64,000 nucleotides of DNA from Candidatus Magasanikbacteria bacterium CG10_big_fil_rev_8_21_14_0_10_36_32 (GTDB lineage: Bacteria > Patescibacteriota > Patescibacteriia > Magasanikbacterales > GWA2-37-8). The notes beneath the pieces are model-generated. The model made no database searches. It was not told the DNA's origin and saw nothing but the letters and a program-made list of their open reading frames with translations. Position numbers and translations under genes: made by a program. Location: positions 4,150 to 68,149 of the forward strand of contig PFBV01000001.1 in NCBI GenBank assembly GCA_002778465.1, in the 5' to 3' direction. Of the stretch, positions 6,190-54,966 are shown piece after piece (position 1 is the stretch's first letter; the number at the start of each line of letters is the position of its first letter).

Positions 6190-7558
6190 TTGTTATTAGC
6201 ATGATACCAAAGACATGAAAAAGTGCTGGTGAAGTGATGTTAATAATAAGTAAAGCAATAATCATTGATAAAATAACCGGACCATTTTTGTTCGGTTTTT
6301 TTATAATATCGCGAATTAATAACACGATTAAAAATAACCACAATGACAAACCAATCAATCCGCTTTCAGCCGTAATTTCCAGATATCCCCAGTCAAAGTG
6401 AGGGGTGGTTATTTCTTTATTAAATATAGGGCTAAAGACAGTGACTGTGTCACCAAGTCCTAAACCAAAAATTGAATCCGGAATGATTATTTTTTCAATA
6501 ATTTTTGGTAAGAGAAGCATTCTGGACAGTGAACTGTCTTCAATTTGCGGCGCTGTGATACTTTGGAGACGTAGGCCAAAAAATTCCCAACCTAGATTTT
6601 GTCCGCGGCTAGTAATTAGATGTAGAGCAGTAAAAATGATAAAGATTGAAATTAAAGAAACAGATATTATCTTAACTGTTCGACGCCAATTTGTTTTCCA
6701 AAATAAAATTCCTAATCCAATTATTAAAGCCAAGTAATAAATTCTCGTTAGGTTAACAGCCATAATTGCGGCGGCAGAAGAAATTACCAGCAGGTTTAAT
6801 CGTTCTTTTTTAAAAATTTGTTTTCCGGCAAATAAAACAAATAGGGGGATCAATAATAATTGTTCGTTTAAGACTATTCTGAAATAACCCAGCCCGACGT
6901 CGGTTATTTTACCTGTAGCCACATCGCGTAACCAATGATAATAGTGATCTTGCAATACGAATATTCCACTGGAAAAACCAGCTAAAGTGAATAATGTAAA
7001 CGCGACATTTCCTATTATGGCCGATACAACCATTGTTAAACCGATAGAGCGGAATTTTTTATTTGTAATAATCTCTTTTAGGGGATAAAAGTACAATATA
7101 AAGCAGTAGGGGATGAAGTCGGATATTACCAAGGTGGGCGAGTGCTTATTTATAATGCCCAGCATAGCTGATAAAACAGCCCAGATAAACAAAGATAAAA
7201 TTAAAATATTGATAGGTTGTCGCAAATTAAATGTTTGTGAGATTTTTTTTTCTTTTATAATTCTAGTAAAGAATATTATTATTGCGAGAATTAGCAATAC
7301 CGATCTCAAAGATAAAGGTTCTAAAGATAAAATATTTCCACTACCGCACAAAATGATTTCTCCGGCAATAATTAGCCAGCCGCGAATATCATTTTTAATT
7401 AAAAAATATGCGGTTAGAACAGCAACAATTGCGGCTATAGCCGTATTTACACAAGAAGCCGTCCACAGAGGTGTGGAGGGATTAAAAAAATAAGAAAACA
7501 GTCGGATGGCAAAATAAATTAGAGTAAAATAAAATATATTTTTAGATTTTATGTTCAT
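6128..7558 (-). CDS. O-antigen ligase/polymerase-like polytopic membrane protein
   Basis: A multi-TM protein convergent with the GT2 gene. A start at Met-14 (7558) avoids overlap with fmt. Wzy/WaaL-like is called from topology and context only. Confidence 0.55.
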   Translation of the reverse strand: MNIKSKNIFYFTLIYFAIRLFSYFFNPSTPLWTASCVNTAIAAIVAVLTAYFLIKNDIRGWLIIAGEIILCGSGNILSLEPLSLRSVLLILAIIIFFTRIIKEKKISQTFNLRQPINILILSLFIWAVLSAMLGIINKHSPTLVISDFIPYCFILYFYPLKEIITNKKFRSIGLTMVVSAIIGNVAFTLFTLAGFSSGIFVLQDHYYHWLRDVATGKITDVGLGYFRIVLNEQLLLIPLFVLFAGKQIFKKERLNLLVISSAAAIMAVNLTRIYYLALIIGLGILFWKTNWRRTVKIISVSLISIFIIFTALHLITSRGQNLGWEFFGLRLQSITAPQIEDSSLSRMLLLPKIIEKIIIPDSIFGLGLGDTVTVFSPIFNKEITTPHFDWGYLEITAESGLIGLSLWLFLIVLLIRDIIKKPNKNGPVILSMIIALLIINITSPALFHVFGIMLITTIAASNDAWKQSSDAPLHIS

Positions 7559-17546: not shown

Positions 17547-17861
17547 TTAATGACAACAAGAGCCGTCATGGTGGTGATGTGTTTTAACTTTATCTTGATG
17601 ATGTTGATCGTGATGATCACAACAAGTGTCATGCGCATCATGGCTGCTTGGCCCATGGTGATTTATTTTTGGCATTTTTGTCAGCCATTGGCCACGATGT
17701 TTTGAACAAAGTTGAATACGAATTAGCGCTATAGTTCTAACTAGGTAGAATTTGGCGTATTCACACAAAAAAATAATGCAGGCAATGGAAAAACAAATAG
17801 TTCCTATGATATTCAACCAATCAAGAATAAAATCAATCCCGTCAGTTTGGGGAAATGTCAT
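17547..17861 (-). CDS. small membrane protein with His/Cys-rich C-terminal tail (putative metal-binding)
   Basis: Two predicted TM helices are followed by HHGPSSHDAHDTCCDHHDQHHQDKVKTHHHHDGSCCH. Confidence 0.5.
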   Translation of the reverse strand: MTFPQTDGIDFILDWLNIIGTICFSIACIIFLCEYAKFYLVRTIALIRIQLCSKHRGQWLTKMPKINHHGPSSHDAHDTCCDHHDQHHQDKVKTHHHHDGSCCH

Positions 17862-21533: not shown

Positions 21534-21737
21534 TCAATGGCTGAGAATATCAATTAAAAGATCGAAAGAACTTTTTTTGCCGTGTACGTGGCAATCAGAA
21601 TTGGGAATGGGATTTAAATTATGAACGGGACATGAATTGCTGGTGTGCCACACTCCGGTTAGCCCAACATAATTGTCGGGTGGTGGATTGGGGCAATTGC
21701 ACCTCTTGGGGCAAGTACACCTGCCTTTTGTTGTCAT
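21534..21737 (-). CDS. small Cys-rich protein, paralog 1 (67 aa)
   Basis: A strong SD (AAGGAG, 8 nt upstream). It shares the CTCPKxCxCxNPPPDN...SN.CP.HNL.P.P...C.VHGK signature with the ORF at 21885..22079. Confidence 0.6.
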   Translation of the reverse strand: MTTKGRCTCPKRCNCPNPPPDNYVGLTGVWHTSNSCPVHNLNPIPNSDCHVHGKKSSFDLLIDILSH

Positions 21738-21884: not shown

Positions 21885-22079
21885 TCAGATAACCAAGTTG
21901 AATTCCAGACAATCCATTTTGCCGTGTACGGGGCAGTTTGGGTCTGGATCGGGATACAAGTTGTGAGTAGGACATTGGTTGCTGACTCCCCAAATCCCAG
22001 TGTATTCAACCGGATTATCTGGCGGTGGGTTTTGGCAGTCACATGTTTTCGGACAAGTGCATTGTTCATTTGATGACAT
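21885..22079 (-). CDS. small Cys-rich protein, paralog 2 (64 aa)
   Basis: A strong SD (AAGGAGGG). It is ~55% identical to paralog 1, with six invariant Cys and two invariant His. Confidence 0.6.
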   Translation of the reverse strand: MSSNEQCTCPKTCDCQNPPPDNPVEYTGIWGVSNQCPTHNLYPDPDPNCPVHGKMDCLEFNLVI

Positions 22080-42304: not shown

Positions 42305-42595
42305 TTAAGCGGTATATTTTATTTTAATCACAGTGCCCAAACCGAATTTTGCGTTTATTTTAGCTAAAATATTTGTTTCATTCAATCTTATTTCTTGGGC
42401 TGCCACTGATCCCTGACAACGAAAAGTTAGCACTTTGTTTTTAATATAAGCAGCTGAAACATAATTTTTTATTTCTTCTCCAAATAATTCCGCCAATATT
42501 TTATCCGTTTCCTCAATAGTAATTGACGTTAAAGCGCCGCGTAAAACCGGCGACTCACTTTTTTTCTGTTGCAAGATGTTAAAGATTGATTTCAT
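42305..42595 (-). CDS. DUF721 (DciA-like) protein
   Basis: A ~96-aa protein with the DUF721-like pattern (LTFRCQGSVAAQEIRLNETNIL). The family call is tentative. Confidence 0.45.
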   Translation of the reverse strand: MKSIFNILQQKKSESPVLRGALTSITIEETDKILAELFGEEIKNYVSAAYIKNKVLTFRCQGSVAAQEIRLNETNILAKINAKFGLGTVIKIKYTA

Positions 42596-45534
42596 GCCCG
42601 ATATTCACAAATATTTTTAAAATCACAATAATCACAGGTGTGTTTTTCCGGCGTAGGTTTAAAATTAAGCGATTGAATACGATCAATAATGGCTGTAATT
42701 TTTTCAGTTAGTTTGGCAATTTCTTTATCATTTCCCAAAAAAGAAATTTTAGTATTATCATTAAGGTAATAATATGTCAGCTGTCCAGATTCTCCCAATT
42801 CACTAAATTCCGGTAATTGTTTTAGAGCGATTTGATAGATTAACAATTGATTTTTGTCTTCCCCGGTGACAGTCTCTTTGCTTTTTCCGGTTTTGTAATC
42901 AATAATTTCCAATCGTCCATCGGACATTTTATCCACACGGTCAATTCGTCCGTGCAACAGATAGGGGCCAATTTTAATTTTAAACCAACTTTCTAAAGCA
43001 ATCGGTACGGTCCATTTATTTTCATGCGTTTTATAAAATTCACGCAAAATTTCTTTTCCTTTAGAAAAATAATCCTCGCGTTGTTTTTTGTTTTTATACC
43101 AATCACCTATCCAATTTTCTTCGTATATTTTTAATAATTCATCCAGAGATGGAACCTTAACATTGCTCAGATTAATGTTTGTTTTAGACGGTTCACCGAA
43201 TAATGAATCCTGTTGGACAGAGTTTAATTCACGAATGCGAATATAAAATTTTTGAAACACCAGATGCATACTTTGTCCAAAACTGAAACTCGGACTTCCT
43301 TCAGTCGGTAATTTTATTATATTGGATAATTTATATTGATAAGGACAAGTATCGTAAGCTTTAATTTGCGAAAACGAAAAAGCTTTCGGCAATTCATAAA
43401 CAAATTGACCTTTATTATCCTCAATTTTTTCGCCAATAGAATTTTTTAATATTTTTTTAGATTTTTTTTCTGTTTTAGCAATTGCCGCTGAAAAATCTAT
43501 CTCGTTTAAAAATCGGCTAATTTTTTTATTTCTTAAACCGCCATAATCATCCGCGCCAGTTAAATATAACTTTTCTTTTGCCCGGGTCATAGCTACATAA
43601 AACAATCTGCGTTCCTCTTGATAATGACTATCCCCTTCCGGCAATTGTTCTTTGATTAATTTTTCAGGAACTTCAATTCCATTGCCGCGGGAACGGGTCG
43701 GAAATCGTTCTTCCACCAAATTAACCATAAAGACATACTTAAATTCTAAACCTTTGGCGGTATGAACGGTCATAATGTTTACAGAATCGGGATTATCGGA
43801 TGGTTGTTTCATAATTCCCAATTCACCGGACTCAATAATGTTGTTGAAGTGTTCTAAAAATTCAAATATCCTCGCCGAAGGAGTGATTGATTCATACTTA
43901 GCGATATATTCAAAAAATTGTTTTAACTGATAAATTTGCCGAATAATTTTACGTTCGCCATGATCTTCACCTTGGGTTAAAAATTTTAAATAACCGCTTT
44001 TGTCCAAAAAAGAATAAAGCACGGCAGTTGGTTTTTCGTTTTGTGCTTGTTTGGCACCATCATTTATCAAATTAACCAGTTTGTCACAATTGACAACACC
44101 TTCTTGAGATACTTCAATTTCTGCAGCCCGCTTTAATACTTCAAATAAAGGTAAGCTTTTTTGTTTGGCAAAATAGGTTAATTTTTGAATGTCGCTTTCC
44201 TTAAAATTAAACACAGGCATTCGTATTAGTCGGTAAACTGATTTAGATTCATGATAATTATCAAGAATTTTAAAAAAATTAATACAGTCAACTACAATGG
44301 GCTGACAATAAAGACCGGCGGCGGCTAAAAATTCATAAGGTATTCCGTGATTTTCCAATGCATTAATAAATAGTTCAGCATGGCTGTTGGCGCGAACCAA
44401 AATAGCAAAATCGTCCCAAACAGATTTTTTGTCTGTTTTTTTGATTTTAATTATTTCTTTTGTCACACTCTCCGCTTCTTCATCAGCAGTGGCCGAATGA
44501 ATATGTATAACTTCCGATTTTAAATCTTTAAATTTAGAGATTAAACGCTTATTAATTTTTAATTTGGTTTCAAGTCTGTCCGGATCATTATTTTTTATCA
44601 GTTTATAAGAGGTATCTAATATGTTCTGTCCGGATCGATAATTTTCAGTCAAAATAATTTCTTTGGCATCGAAAAAATCATCTTTAAATCGCAAAATATT
44701 GGAAACTGAAGCGCCGCGAAAAGCGTAAATACTCTGATCGTCATCACCAACGACCGAGAGTTGCGCTCCGGCAGCGGATAATTGTCGTATTAATGAATAT
44801 TGCGCCCAATTAACATCTTGGAATTCATCTACTAAAATAAATTTAAAACGATTTTGTAAAAGCTTTAAAATTTGTGGACGTTTTTCCAACAAAAGATTGC
44901 TATAAAAAATTAAATCTCCAAAATCCAGAGCATTATTTTCTAACAGTAATTGATTGTAAATATGGTAAGCGTCAGCTATCTCAGACAATCTGTTTTTTTC
45001 GTCAATATTTACCTGATCTTTGTCCAACTTCAAGTTTTCAGCATATTCAAGATAATTCTCAGGAGAAATCATTTCATCTTTACACTTGGAAAAATGTTTG
45101 ATTAATTCATGAATATGTTTAGTTGGATTACCCATCGGCCGATAATAATCAAGGTTAAATTTATCCAAATTGTTATGGATTAACAACCATGCGTCAGTTG
45201 GTGTAATGATTTTAAAATTAGTCGATAAACCAATATCTAAACCATGCCATTCTAACAATTTTTGGCAAAAAGCGTGGAAAGTGGATATTTGCAAATCAGC
45301 ATAACCAATGTCCAAATCCTCGTCTAATCTGTTTTGCATTTCAGCTGCGGCTTTTTCATTAAAAGTCAACGCTAAAATTTCTTCAGGTTTAGCGAGTTTT
45401 TTATCTAATAAATATTTTATTTTTTGCGTTACCACTGTGGTTTTACCTGTTCCGGCACCTGCCACAATAATCAAGGGTCCGGATACATATTCCACAGCTT
45501 GTTTTTGCGCGGCATTTAAAATGCGTTTGGTCAT
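42592..45534 (-). CDS. UvrD/PcrA-family helicase fused to C-terminal PD-(D/E)xK (RecB/Cas4-like) nuclease with Cys cluster
   Basis: An N-terminal GAGTGKT Walker A and UvrD motifs. The C-terminus has RIDRVD...EIIDYKTGK plus a C...CDYCDFKNIC cluster. Confidence 0.8.
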   Translation of the reverse strand: MTKRILNAAQKQAVEYVSGPLIIVAGAGTGKTTVVTQKIKYLLDKKLAKPEEILALTFNEKAAAEMQNRLDEDLDIGYADLQISTFHAFCQKLLEWHGLDIGLSTNFKIITPTDAWLLIHNNLDKFNLDYYRPMGNPTKHIHELIKHFSKCKDEMISPENYLEYAENLKLDKDQVNIDEKNRLSEIADAYHIYNQLLLENNALDFGDLIFYSNLLLEKRPQILKLLQNRFKFILVDEFQDVNWAQYSLIRQLSAAGAQLSVVGDDDQSIYAFRGASVSNILRFKDDFFDAKEIILTENYRSGQNILDTSYKLIKNNDPDRLETKLKINKRLISKFKDLKSEVIHIHSATADEEAESVTKEIIKIKKTDKKSVWDDFAILVRANSHAELFINALENHGIPYEFLAAAGLYCQPIVVDCINFFKILDNYHESKSVYRLIRMPVFNFKESDIQKLTYFAKQKSLPLFEVLKRAAEIEVSQEGVVNCDKLVNLINDGAKQAQNEKPTAVLYSFLDKSGYLKFLTQGEDHGERKIIRQIYQLKQFFEYIAKYESITPSARIFEFLEHFNNIIESGELGIMKQPSDNPDSVNIMTVHTAKGLEFKYVFMVNLVEERFPTRSRGNGIEVPEKLIKEQLPEGDSHYQEERRLFYVAMTRAKEKLYLTGADDYGGLRNKKISRFLNEIDFSAAIAKTEKKSKKILKNSIGEKIEDNKGQFVYELPKAFSFSQIKAYDTCPYQYKLSNIIKLPTEGSPSFSFGQSMHLVFQKFYIRIRELNSVQQDSLFGEPSKTNINLSNVKVPSLDELLKIYEENWIGDWYKNKKQREDYFSKGKEILREFYKTHENKWTVPIALESWFKIKIGPYLLHGRIDRVDKMSDGRLEIIDYKTGKSKETVTGEDKNQLLIYQIALKQLPEFSELGESGQLTYYYLNDNTKISFLGNDKEIAKLTEKITAIIDRIQSLNFKPTPEKHTCDYCDFKNICEYRA

Positions 45535-45621
45535 ACTTTAATTTAAAAAATTATCCATTCTGATGGACATAATGATTTTGAATTTATATTTGGTTAATTA
45601 ACTTGTAACCAACTTGGCTTG

Positions 45622-45759
45622 TTAGCAATTGTCACAACTGCAATCGGTTTCGCAAGAGCATTCTTTACCCTCACCACAACCACAATCGCAACCGGCTTCA
45701 CAACCACAGTCGCATTTTTCCTCTACCTTTTTTTCTTCACATCCACAGTCTTTACACAT
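45622..45759 (-). CDS. metallothionein-like Cys-rich small protein (45 aa, 15 Cys)
   Basis: Not in the ORF track (<60 aa). The translation MCKDCGCEEKKVEEKCDCGCEAGCDCGCGEGKECSCETDCSCDNC has CxC/CxxxC repeats with mixed TGT/TGC codons. It lies between tatD and the helicase on the same strand. Confidence 0.45.
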   Translation of the reverse strand: MCKDCGCEEKKVEEKCDCGCEAGCDCGCGEGKECSCETDCSCDNC

Positions 45760-45786
45760 AGGCTTTTAAATTAAATAAATTAAATC

Positions 45787-46623
45787 TTATTTTATATTAA
45801 ACAATTTTAACGCGTTTGCAAAAGTAATTTCATTAACTTTATCATAACTGATTTTTTTAATTTCAGCAATTTTTTTAACCACTTCTTCCACCATCCAAGG
45901 TTCGCAACGTTGTCCGCGATAAGCTTGGGGAGCTAAATATGGCGCATCTGTTTCTGTTAAAATTCTTTCCAAGGGACAGTTTTGAACAGTTTCAATTAAA
46001 TCCGCTTGAATTTGAGGATCAGTTTTTTTTGCCGGAAAAGTAATCGTGGCGGTAAAACCTAAATGTAGTCCAAGTGATAAAAATTTTTCCGCGTTTCTCC
46101 AATTGCTTGAATAACAATGTACCACACCGCGAATTTTATATGGCAATTCTTCCAAAATTTTTATTGTTTCTTGGTAGGCGGATCTAACATGAATAACTAC
46201 CGGCAAACTTAACTCCTGCGCCAACTCAATTTGTTTAATAAAAGCCTCTTTTTGCAAAACAAAAGCTTCGTCCCGAGACATGTTGATCGGCAAATGATAA
46301 AAATCTAAACCACACTCCCCTATTGCTATAGTTTTTTTATGTTTTGCCAATTCACGATAAATATCAATGTCAAATTTTTCTTCTCGGCTTTTAAATTGAA
46401 TTTCTTCCTCATCAATTTCGGTTGAACATAAATGAATCGGATGTAATCCGACAGTAGCATAAACACCATCAAAACTTTCAGCAAATTTTACCGCTCGACG
46501 ACTGGTATCCAATTGAGAACCAACTGTATTTAAAATTATTTTTTTATCAGCGCATTTTTTTATTACTTCTGCGGAATCATCCTTAAAAGCGTTAAATTGC
46601 ACATGGCAGTGCGTATCCATCAT
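45787..46623 (-). CDS. tatD: TatD-family metal-dependent hydrolase/DNase
   Basis: The MMDTHCHVQF N-terminal His motif on a TIM-barrel hydrolase pattern. Confidence 0.85.
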   Translation of the reverse strand: MMDTHCHVQFNAFKDDSAEVIKKCADKKIILNTVGSQLDTSRRAVKFAESFDGVYATVGLHPIHLCSTEIDEEEIQFKSREEKFDIDIYRELAKHKKTIAIGECGLDFYHLPINMSRDEAFVLQKEAFIKQIELAQELSLPVVIHVRSAYQETIKILEELPYKIRGVVHCYSSNWRNAEKFLSLGLHLGFTATITFPAKKTDPQIQADLIETVQNCPLERILTETDAPYLAPQAYRGQRCEPWMVEEVVKKIAEIKKISYDKVNEITFANALKLFNIK

Positions 46624-53177: not shown

Positions 53178-54314
53178 CTAATCTTGTTTAATCATACTAA
53201 TATTGTATGATATTATTTCCAAATTGTCAAGTGTGGATAAATCCAGTTGTTTTTCCAATTCCAACACATCTTGAAGCTTTGATTTGGTTTGTGGATGTTT
53301 CGCCACAAATAAACTGCAACAATCCTCATAAGGACGATTGGAGATATCCAAAGTGCCAAGTTTTCGCGCCAATTTCATAATTTCACTTTTATTCATTCCA
53401 ATCAGCGGCGCTAATTTTAACATGTCAACTGAATCGTAAATAGCGGTTAAATTTTCTAAAGTTTGCGATGCCACCTGCCCCAAACTATCGCCGGTTATTA
53501 AAGCTTGGCAATTTTCTTTTTTAGAAAGTTTTTCCGCGATTCTAAACATTAGCCGGCGAGTAATAATCATTCTGTAATCAGCCGGTATTTTCATTACTAC
53601 CTGACGCTGACATTCAGCAAACGGAGCGATGAATAATTTTATTGACGACTGATATTGCGCCAAAGTTTTGGTTAAATCGATAATTTTTAATGATACCTCA
53701 TCAGTGACCTGAGTTTGATTTTGAAAATGTACAAAAACAACTTCCGCTCCCCTTCTCATCATTTGATAAGCGGCCACAGGTGAATCAATTCCACCGGATA
53801 CAAGACACATTACTTTTCCGGCTGAACCTATCGGCAAACCACTGGCGCCTTCCTGCGGATTAATATAAACAACGGCTTTATCTTTACTTATATCTATATA
53901 TATGTTTAATTCCGGACGAGTTAAATTAACTTTCCAACCATATTTATCAATCAATAAACCACCAAGTTCACGATTTATATTGTCGGAATTAATCGGATAT
54001 TTTTTATACGAACGGCTGGCGGTAATACGAAATTCCCGGACAGATTTATCAAATTCCATTCCACTCAAACATTTTTTAATTTCATCCATTGAATTTCCAA
54101 TTACTTGACAAGGCGCCAACTTGGCAATGCCTGGAATTTTCGACAAACGTTCTAAATCATCATCCTCTAAATTTAAAATAACAAAACCGCCTTCAACTCT
54201 CTGAATAGCGGCTTTAGGAAAAAGTTCGTCTAAATTATCCGCCAAACAGCGAATAAACATCAATTGATTTTTTCCTTTTAAAAAAATTTCATCAAAATGA
54301 GTAATGACATCCAT
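53178..54314 (-). CDS. thiI: tRNA 4-thiouridine synthase ThiI
   Basis: A THUMP-like N-terminus and the PP-loop LVSGGIDSPVAAY. Confidence 0.85.
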   Translation of the reverse strand: MDVITHFDEIFLKGKNQLMFIRCLADNLDELFPKAAIQRVEGGFVILNLEDDDLERLSKIPGIAKLAPCQVIGNSMDEIKKCLSGMEFDKSVREFRITASRSYKKYPINSDNINRELGGLLIDKYGWKVNLTRPELNIYIDISKDKAVVYINPQEGASGLPIGSAGKVMCLVSGGIDSPVAAYQMMRRGAEVVFVHFQNQTQVTDEVSLKIIDLTKTLAQYQSSIKLFIAPFAECQRQVVMKIPADYRMIITRRLMFRIAEKLSKKENCQALITGDSLGQVASQTLENLTAIYDSVDMLKLAPLIGMNKSEIMKLARKLGTLDISNRPYEDCCSLFVAKHPQTKSKLQDVLELEKQLDLSTLDNLEIISYNISMIKQD

Positions 54315-54966
54315 GTGACTTATCTAAATTTATTCCTTTTTTAACAACAGCATTAAAGTCGTCGTTATATGTGCCGATTATCGGATAAACGCCATCGCAG
54401 TTGCAAAACATAATATCCCCATGGGGATTGAGTGTTAATCTTATCGGACAAGTATAATTGAGACATCTTCTTGAACAAGTCCATTTATCTTTTTTCGCCC
54501 GACCCATTGGAATAATATTATCTTCGCCTTTTAAAGTAAAACCATATTTTTTAGCGTACTTTTCCAAAACCTTACTATCTTGAAATGGTTTGTGAAATTT
54601 AGTTGTACTAATAAATACCTGCAATCTGTTCTTCTGTACAAAATCAATAAATTTTTTTCTCTCCACCTCACCAACAGACCAAGTTCCATTACTTATAGTA
54701 AATTTGATAACATTTTTAGGCACTAAATCAATAAATTTTTGATATCTGTCATAGTCGGATGAAATTTCACCGCCATAAAATCCTACGCTATTAATTTTAT
54801 TAAAATCAATGGTTAAAATAAACTTTTTAGTCTTTTCAATATCTAAAACGATTTTACTTTTCGGAGAGGCCTCATACATGCAATGAGAACAGGCAAGAGT
54901 GCACTTCAGACTTGGCATGAAACTGAAATCCACCAATCTTTCATTTTTTACTTTGATCTTTACCAT
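54292..54966 (-). CDS. radical SAM protein with extra C-terminal Cys cluster
   Basis: CTLACSHC (CxxxCxxC), FYGGEIS (a GGE-like SAM motif) and a C-terminal CSRRCLNYTCP...FCNCDG. Confidence 0.55.
   Translation of the reverse strand: MVKIKVKNERLVDFSFMPSLKCTLACSHCMYEASPKSKIVLDIEKTKKFILTIDFNKINSVGFYGGEISSDYDRYQKFIDLVPKNVIKFTISNGTWSVGEVERKKFIDFVQKNRLQVFISTTKFHKPFQDSKVLEKYAKKYGFTLKGEDNIIPMGRAKKDKWTCSRRCLNYTCPIRLTLNPHGDIMFCNCDGVYPIIGTYNDDFNAVVKKGINLDKSHGCHYSF

Follow-up and report, generated by a model that had tools for sequence, protein, structure and literature searches.

Most bacteria are thought to do without metallothioneins. The well-described bacterial representatives belong essentially to two lineages, the SmtA/BmtA zinc-finger type and the mycobacterial MymT (PMC7558416, PMC10612145). 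SmtA-type proteins adopt a GATA-like zinc-finger fold and carry His ligands and aromatic residues (PMC10612145; PMC7558416), and MymT is a small, previously unannotated Cys-rich open reading frame (ORF; 4.9 kDa) that was found outside the SmtA family (PMC7558416). Here, we describe a gene for a 45-residue Cys-rich peptide from Candidatus Magasanikbacteria bacterium CG10_big_fil_rev_8_21_14_0_10_36_32, located in a stretch of 64,000 nt of contig PFBV01000001.1 (assembly GCA_002778465.1, positions 4,150 to 68,149 of the forward strand), which as a whole is termed the window. We consider it probable, at roughly 65%, that the window peptide is metallothionein-like and most likely holds soft metal ions in thiolate clusters, a reading that draws on composition and on the gene neighbours of two distant family members.

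With the SmtA/BmtA proteins (PF02069; including PflQ2MT and PmtA), the window peptide shares its small size, bacterial origin, richness in Cys and a presumed role in metal buffering. It differs from them in having no His, no aromatic residues and no predicted fold, and PF02069 matched neither the peptide nor any of the 94 aligned members of the wider family described below; the peptide is not an SmtA/BmtA member. The likeness to MymT, a Cu(I) metallothionein of mycobacteria controlled by the CsoR-type repressor RicR, is an analogy of discovery and regulation only: both came to notice as small Cys-rich ORFs outside the SmtA family, and a relative of the peptide at locus L103 sits directly behind a CsoR-family repressor. 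The window peptide gene has no adjoining CsoR-type gene; moreover, MymT contains His, and its Cys motifs differ.

A further resemblance is to Metallothionein family 5 (PF02067; Diptera, with Drosophila MtnA) and to small fungal Cu(I)-metallothioneins. Like these, the peptide type described here is about 40-45 residues long, with 25-31% Cys mostly in C-x-C and C-x3-C motifs and no aromatics or His, and it is predicted to lack structure when no metal is bound. The last 20 residues of the peptide show the spacing C-x-C-x5-C-x-C-x3-C-x-C-x2-C, which we take to be common to the Neurospora crassa metallothionein. Unlike these eukaryotic types, the window peptide is bacterial and strongly acidic, carries a family-specific GC-x-EGKEC motif and does not match PF02067. 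Among its relatives, a 238-residue protein (P0001) passes PF02067 with 31 bits (cut-off 25 bits), the orthologue at locus L007 reaches E 0.37, and 53 of the 94 family members give weak, sub-threshold matches (best E 4.5e-4). The resemblance to MtnA and the fungal metallothioneins most likely reflects convergent composition, not common descent.

The peptide gene and its reading frame

The gene and its two immediate neighbours, which all lie on the minus strand as a preliminary description of this DNA had stated, are as follows.

45622..45759, minus strand: Cys-rich peptide gene, ATG to TAA, with the translation MCKDCGCEEKKVEEKCDCGCEAGCDCGCGEGKECSCETDCSCDNC, 45 residues followed by a stop
45787..46623, minus strand: tatD, encoding a TatD-family hydrolase (PF01026); upstream neighbour and anchor for finding orthologous loci
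42592..45534, minus strand: gene for a UvrD-type helicase with a PD-(D/E)XK/Cas4-like nuclease domain, AddB-like, 980 aa, as assigned by Pfam families; downstream neighbour

The coordinates, strand and peptide sequence given in that description were reproduced, and some of its counts were revised. The peptide contains 14 Cys instead of 15, and the gaps of 28 and 88 nt, for which the first base of the next gene had been counted, are correctly 27 nt from the tatD stop to the peptide ORF and 87 nt from the ORF to the helicase start at 45534. The designation as unannotated is accurate for an ORF track with a 60-aa minimum and does not apply to public gene calls, in which the identical peptide is called as a gene on 11 contigs. 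Three retrieved contigs (L001-L003) are 100% identical to the window across 7-9 kb, and no strain variation is therefore measurable.

Cys makes up 31% of the peptide (14 of 45 residues, at positions 2, 5, 7, 16, 18, 20, 24, 26, 28, 34, 36, 40, 42 and 45), with successive spacings of 2,1,8,1,1,3,1,1,5,1,3,1,2 that include seven overlapping C-x-C motifs. The remainder includes 13 Asp/Glu and 5 Lys, with zero His and zero Phe, Trp or Tyr. In a six-frame, stop-to-stop survey of the window, the peptide ORF reached 11 Cys per 30 residues, compared with at most 6 in any other segment, a density far beyond chance expectation. The earlier statement that the region is not a pure DNA repeat holds as well: Tandem Repeats Finder detected no tandem array within the ORF, the Cys codons are mixed (8 TGT and 6 TGC), and the direct repeats are limited to imperfect 16-nt units that mirror the reiterated CDCGC codons. 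No Rfam family matched the region of the gene.

Orthologous loci were located by anchoring on TatD, which is 100% identical to the TatD of Candidatus Magasanikbacteria bacterium CG10_big_fil_rev_8_21_14_0_10_36_32 and whose relatives all come from metagenome-assembled genomes (MAGs) of Patescibacteria, or candidate phyla radiation (CPR). Four species of one Magasanikbacteria subclade carry a Cys-rich ORF with an ATG start, 42-46 codons and 10-14 Cys directly after tatD and on the same strand.

Window, TatD reference: MCKDCGCEEKKVEEKCDCGCEAGCDCGCGEGKECSCETDCSCDNC, 45 codons
L090, TatD 79% identical: MCKTCGCEDKKQAEEKNCDCGDNCDCGDEKECSCEPTCDCEADK, 44 codons
L091, TatD 74% identical: MCKDCGDEKHLKKECSCGPECGPECKCGCHNDKKCCDGVDCDCKEA, 46 codons; called as a gene in the source annotation
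L007, TatD 60% identical: MDEEKKCGCGPDCDCGPDCSSGDSECQCNKDCDCGSDDKQES, 42 codons

With lengths of 45, 44, 46 and 42 codons, the frame has been kept despite length differences. The three other species show no frame-disrupting indels and keep the ORF intact, together with its position, strand and Cys columns. Codon alignments of the four orthologues gave pairwise synonymous differences (pS) of 0.58-1.0, which is saturated, versus nonsynonymous differences (pN) of 0.24-0.44, and dN/dS was 0.17-0.33 for the pairs that allowed its calculation. The differences cluster at the third codon position (18/11/28 and 16/15/30 over the three positions, for instance), TGT and TGC alternate in the conserved Cys columns, and the ATG and an MCK.CG start are kept. 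The gene is under purifying selection in the Cys frame, and the ORF is very probably a real protein-coding gene.

Could the ORF instead be a chance open frame in compositionally odd or repetitive intergenic DNA, with coding on the opposite strand or nowhere? Besides the Cys frame, the remaining frames and the antisense strand are likewise free of stops (37-51 aa in the window, at most 78 aa in L090), the ORF has no Shine-Dalgarno (SD) sequence, and a promoter and terminator scan of the region found no signal exceeding shuffled expectation. We nevertheless regard this explanation as scarcely credible. The openness of the alternative frames stems from composition, and the third-position signal singles out the Cys frame, which alone shows the third-position excess and saturated synonymous sites. 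Further points against a chance frame are the conserved ATG and MCK.CG start, the lack of a tandem repeat in the ORF, and an E 3e-9 match to a module that is in frame within a 238-aa protein (see below). The missing SD is uninformative, because an SD-like motif lies within 20 nt of the start in just 2 of the 53 long ORFs of the window; the genome as a whole seems to lack SD sites and to start translation mostly on AT-rich leaders that do not pair as an SD would. Among the relatives, all 11 distinct standalone members on low-GC Bacillota-like contigs carry a canonical AGGAGG-type SD 5-8 nt before the ATG.

A family of cysteine-rich modules

An exhaustive phmmer search with the peptide over 1.84 billion representative proteins matched P0001 at E 3.2e-9, with 72% identity to its repeat. 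P0001, a hypothetical protein of 238 aa from an Erysipelotrichaceae MAG, is the only family member with a named source; in it, a DUF1904-like N-terminal domain is followed by three in-frame copies of a Cys/His repeat of about 38 aa. The in-frame position of the module inside such a long protein provides an independent fix of the reading frame. A word-index protein search with the peptide gave no match, because the exact peptide is absent from that collection. A metagenome scan with a three-sequence alignment as query gave 19 low-GC loci (tblastn E 2e-6 to 9e-5, values that are relative to the candidate set), and a profile search gave 99 clusters of small proteins of 29-97 aa that have no Pfam domain and are named only ‘hypothetical protein’.

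The family consensus reads MEE(E)KKCNCxPDCTCGCQEGKECTC. In an alignment of 94 sequences, comprising 90 of the 99 clusters and the four CPR peptides, a seven-Cys core of C-x-C-x3-C-x-C-x-C-x5-C-x-C occurs in 86, including the window peptide, where it begins at residue 18 (CGCEAGCDCGCGEGKECSC), and a stricter motif with GC-x-[ED]G-x-[ED]C occurs in 80. The start of the L007 orthologue, MxEEKKCxCGPDC, is also seen in Bacillota-like members, and only the CPR subclade has the N-terminal extension MCKDCGC. Family members average 25% Cys, 16% Glu, 13% Lys, 10% Gly and 8.5% Asp, with almost no aromatics. NCBIfam has no model covering the family, the family profile found no relative in the PDB, and our literature search found no paper on it. 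On sequence grounds, the window peptide is a divergent member of an undescribed bacterial family of Cys-rich modules with the core C-x-C-x3-C-x-C-G-C-x-E-G-K-E-C-x-C.

This family is translated and modular. The module stands N-terminally on GrpE in nine loci (L093, L095-L098, L100, L102, L110 and L111), in one to three copies, and C-terminally on histidyl-tRNA synthetase (HisRS; L094), RpiB (L107) and a 4Fe-4S ferredoxin (P0217); additionally, P0218 and L105 are membrane-anchored forms. Such fusions are in keeping with an autonomous metal-binding tail, and not with an enzyme or a precursor peptide. His/Cys-rich metal-binding tails are found on chaperones and housekeeping proteins, for example the C-terminal tail of Helicobacter pylori GroES/HspA. 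The module added to GrpE, HisRS, RpiB and ferredoxin resembles these as an add-on metal-storage tail; unlike them, it has an unrelated sequence, and its window copy is a standalone gene.

The fusions also bear on the idea that the peptide is the precursor of a ribosomally synthesized and post-translationally modified peptide (RiPP), such as the radical-SAM-modified Cys-rich SCIFF or ranthipeptides. Like SCIFF, the peptide is small, Cys-rich and 45 residues long, and the window does contain a radical-SAM-like ORF.

54292..54966, minus strand: small radical-SAM-like protein, 224 aa, with CxxxCxxC, below the Pfam threshold, between a class II aminoacyl-tRNA synthetase gene and thiI; unlinked to the peptide gene

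This ORF lies 8.5 kb, or about nine genes, away, and none of the four CPR and seven Bacillota-like contexts has an adjoining maturase, protease or exporter. No NCBIfam precursor model matched, and a module that serves as an in-frame domain of GrpE, HisRS, RpiB and ferredoxin is incompatible with a leader-core precursor, which leaves a RiPP origin very unlikely.

A regulatory role in cis fares slightly worse and is highly improbable. Polycysteine leader ORFs in mycobacteria act by ribosome stalling, and stalling at the many Cys codons of the window ORF could, by analogy, sense how much cysteine is available and regulate the glycosylase or helicase genes downstream (see below). The ORF is short, Cys-dense and directly upstream of same-strand genes, with a small hairpin downstream. 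Against this, the downstream genes (a glycosylase gene or its remnant, and the helicase gene) are unrelated to cysteine metabolism, and the sole structure is that weak hairpin (z-score -1.35), which overlaps the start of the remnant gene; no terminator-like site was found in the region. Furthermore, both the spacing and the non-Cys residues are conserved in a large family whose downstream genes vary, and the module is also found as a protein domain.

Metal links and the proposed function

Some members of the family adjoin metal-homeostasis genes. The clearest link to metals is found at L103 (647..2490), where genes for a CsoR/RicR-like repressor, a 60-aa family member and a CDF cation efflux protein follow one another in that order. 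Some 10 nt separate the stop of the CsoR/RcnR-family repressor gene from the start of the family member, which is preceded by an AGGAGG of its own; downstream of this member lies a terminator-like hairpin followed by a T-run, read by eye. The best NCBIfam match of the repressor is the copper sensor RicR, below threshold. The repressor has Cys42, His67 and Cys71, which we take to be the x-C-H-C signature of those CsoR proteins that sense Cu(I). Another member (P0209) lies two genes from a further CDF transporter, and two CDF neighbours in seven contexts are unlikely by chance, by a rough estimate on a small sample.

The peptide also has the general attributes of metallothioneins, being below 10 kDa at 45 residues, rich in Cys arranged in C-x-C motifs and free of His and aromatics. 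AlphaFold, run with a 91-sequence alignment, returned a coil with no secondary structure at a pLDDT of 59; such a low-confidence model fits a peptide that would fold only around metal. Under the metallothionein-like reading, the product would be a cytosolic peptide that is unstructured without metal, whose reduced thiolates in C-x-C pairs would enclose a number of soft metal ions, be they Cu(I), Zn(II) or Cd(II), in metal-thiolate clusters. These clusters could buffer or store metal, shielding sensitive targets. The CsoR link and the C-x-C-rich spacing would lean towards Cu(I), and the CDF links leave room for Zn, Cd, Co or Ni.

Several observations weigh against this reading. The net charge of the peptide, about -8, is unusually acidic for a metallothionein. 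The peptide itself has no match in Pfam, NCBIfam or the PDB, even at E 10, and hhalign gave short, weak matches to MtnA (probability 35%) and the N. crassa protein (13%), in comparisons with unverified sequences of the two. Cys spacing is not strictly kept across the four CPR orthologues, and the locus itself is rare: of 80 loci from GTDB species that encode a relative of TatD, one (L007) keeps both the tatD-to-helicase synteny and the ORF. Moreover, no relation to metals is seen in five of the seven Bacillota-like contexts, and in the CPR genomes the gene is surrounded by DNA-repair and housekeeping genes and not by metal genes.

The genomic setting gives weight to a different view, namely a real Cys-rich protein that does not buffer metal. 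It could spare DNA-repair enzymes by acting as a redox buffer or sacrificial thiol, carry or donate Fe-S clusters, or work together with TatD, the glycosylase or the helicase-nuclease. Its position inside the cluster of tatD, HhH-GPD glycosylase and helicase-nuclease genes is kept in four species, NifS, NifU and ferredoxin genes form a set four to six genes upstream, one module is fused to a 4Fe-4S ferredoxin, and most contexts contain no metal-homeostasis genes. The C-x-C-rich spacing and the lack of a hydrophobic core, by contrast, are of the metal-thiolate type and not that of Fe-S ligation or redox CxxC folds, the CsoR-like repressor and CDF pump links point to soft-metal homeostasis, and the contexts of the Bacillota-like members vary, so that no fixed protein partner is indicated. 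A redox, DNA-protecting or Fe-S role is, in our judgement, unlikely, but it stays a serious rival because the CPR cluster has no metal genes nearby. The metallothionein-like coding ORF that the preliminary description had proposed is supported by three intact syntenic orthologues, by the E 3e-9 similarity to the P0001 repeat and by P0001 passing PF02067.

The locus, its surroundings and wider meaning

Between the peptide and helicase genes, L091 (4204..4875) and L007 (7092..7802) carry an intact gene for an HhH-GPD (endonuclease III-like; PF00730) DNA glycosylase, which starts with MDIFKVYKK or MMDLFEVYKK. The helicase-nuclease orthologue of L007 is 63% identical to that of the window. Comparison with these two loci identified the remnant in the window, and a conserved element precedes the peptide gene.

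45538..45558, minus strand: remnant 5' end of a lost HhH-GPD DNA glycosylase gene, ATGGATAATTTTTTAAATTAA, encoding MDNFLN*
45764..45784, minus strand: AT-rich 21-nt element TTTAATTTATTTAATTTAAAA, 4 nt upstream of the peptide ATG

A corresponding six-codon remnant, MDIFKV*, is present in L090 (about 7143..7163). As only the first six codons survive in the window and L090, the body of the glycosylase gene has been deleted in both, and this deletion explains the 87-nt spacer and its small ATCCAT/ATGGAT hairpin (45552..45569), the weak structure noted above. The element TTTAATTTATTTAATTTAAAA occurs once in the window and is identical at the orthologous position of L091 despite a TatD identity of only 74%; it is a probable promoter or SD-less translation-initiation region. 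In L090, the AT-rich element upstream of the peptide gene is interrupted by a highly structured insertion of about 90 nt (6869..6960; two hairpins, -45.7 kcal/mol, z-score -8.1) with the terminal inverted repeats TCCCGATTTT and AAAATCGGGA, which looks like a miniature inverted-repeat element.

In the window subclade, tatD is followed by the peptide gene, the glycosylase gene where present, and the helicase, DciA and MreB genes, and in other Magasanikbacteria (L092, L118 and L119) by an ATP synthase operon. The peptide gene thus marks a rearrangement (synteny) breakpoint, and at the tatD locus it is confined to a narrow subclade, as judged from the 80-locus synteny survey. A tblastn search of plasmids and phages gave no match, a weak negative given that the low-complexity filter was on. 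Many GTDB records titled ‘uncultured Gammaproteobacteria bacterium’ (L007, L009, L016, L019-L021 and others) carry a Magasanikbacteria-like TatD, and L007 shows full CPR synteny under such a title; these record titles look mislabelled.

The window encodes other Cys-rich proteins, which had been taken to suggest a recurring theme of small metal-binding proteins.

21534..21737 and 21885..22079, minus strand: twin paralogous proteins of about 65 aa each, with CTCPKxCxCxNPPPDN...CP.HNL...CPVHGK common to both
17547..17861, minus strand: 104-aa protein with a hydrophobic N-terminal half and a His/Cys-rich tail, HHGPSSHDAHDTCCDHHDQHHQDKVKTHHHHDGSCCH

This theme brings together unrelated proteins: the twin CTCPK proteins and the His/Cys-tailed membrane protein match no Pfam family and contain no core motif of the module family. 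The tail of the 17547..17861 protein may bind metal.

As a broader and more tentative proposal, with chances a little short of even, the peptide would be the CPR representative of a widespread, unrecognized third family of bacterial metallothioneins. This family would comprise at least about 100 clusters, mostly on low-GC Bacillota-like contigs, with members that form standalone genes, a gene sharing an operon with a CsoR-type repressor, or add-on tails, and one CPR subclade would have acquired or retained a copy that became fixed in a DNA-repair cluster. There, the peptide might keep redox-active metal off DNA or supply metal to the neighbouring nucleases. If this is true, a third family would widen the view of how small-genome bacteria buffer soft metals. 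It would be recognizable by sequence, present in an ultra-small CPR bacterium as well as on numerous low-GC Bacillota-like contigs from metagenomes, and chaperones and enzymes would carry it, reused, as a tail. Annotators would, moreover, gain a model for genes of fewer than 60 aa, which ORF-length cut-offs and low-complexity filters routinely hide.

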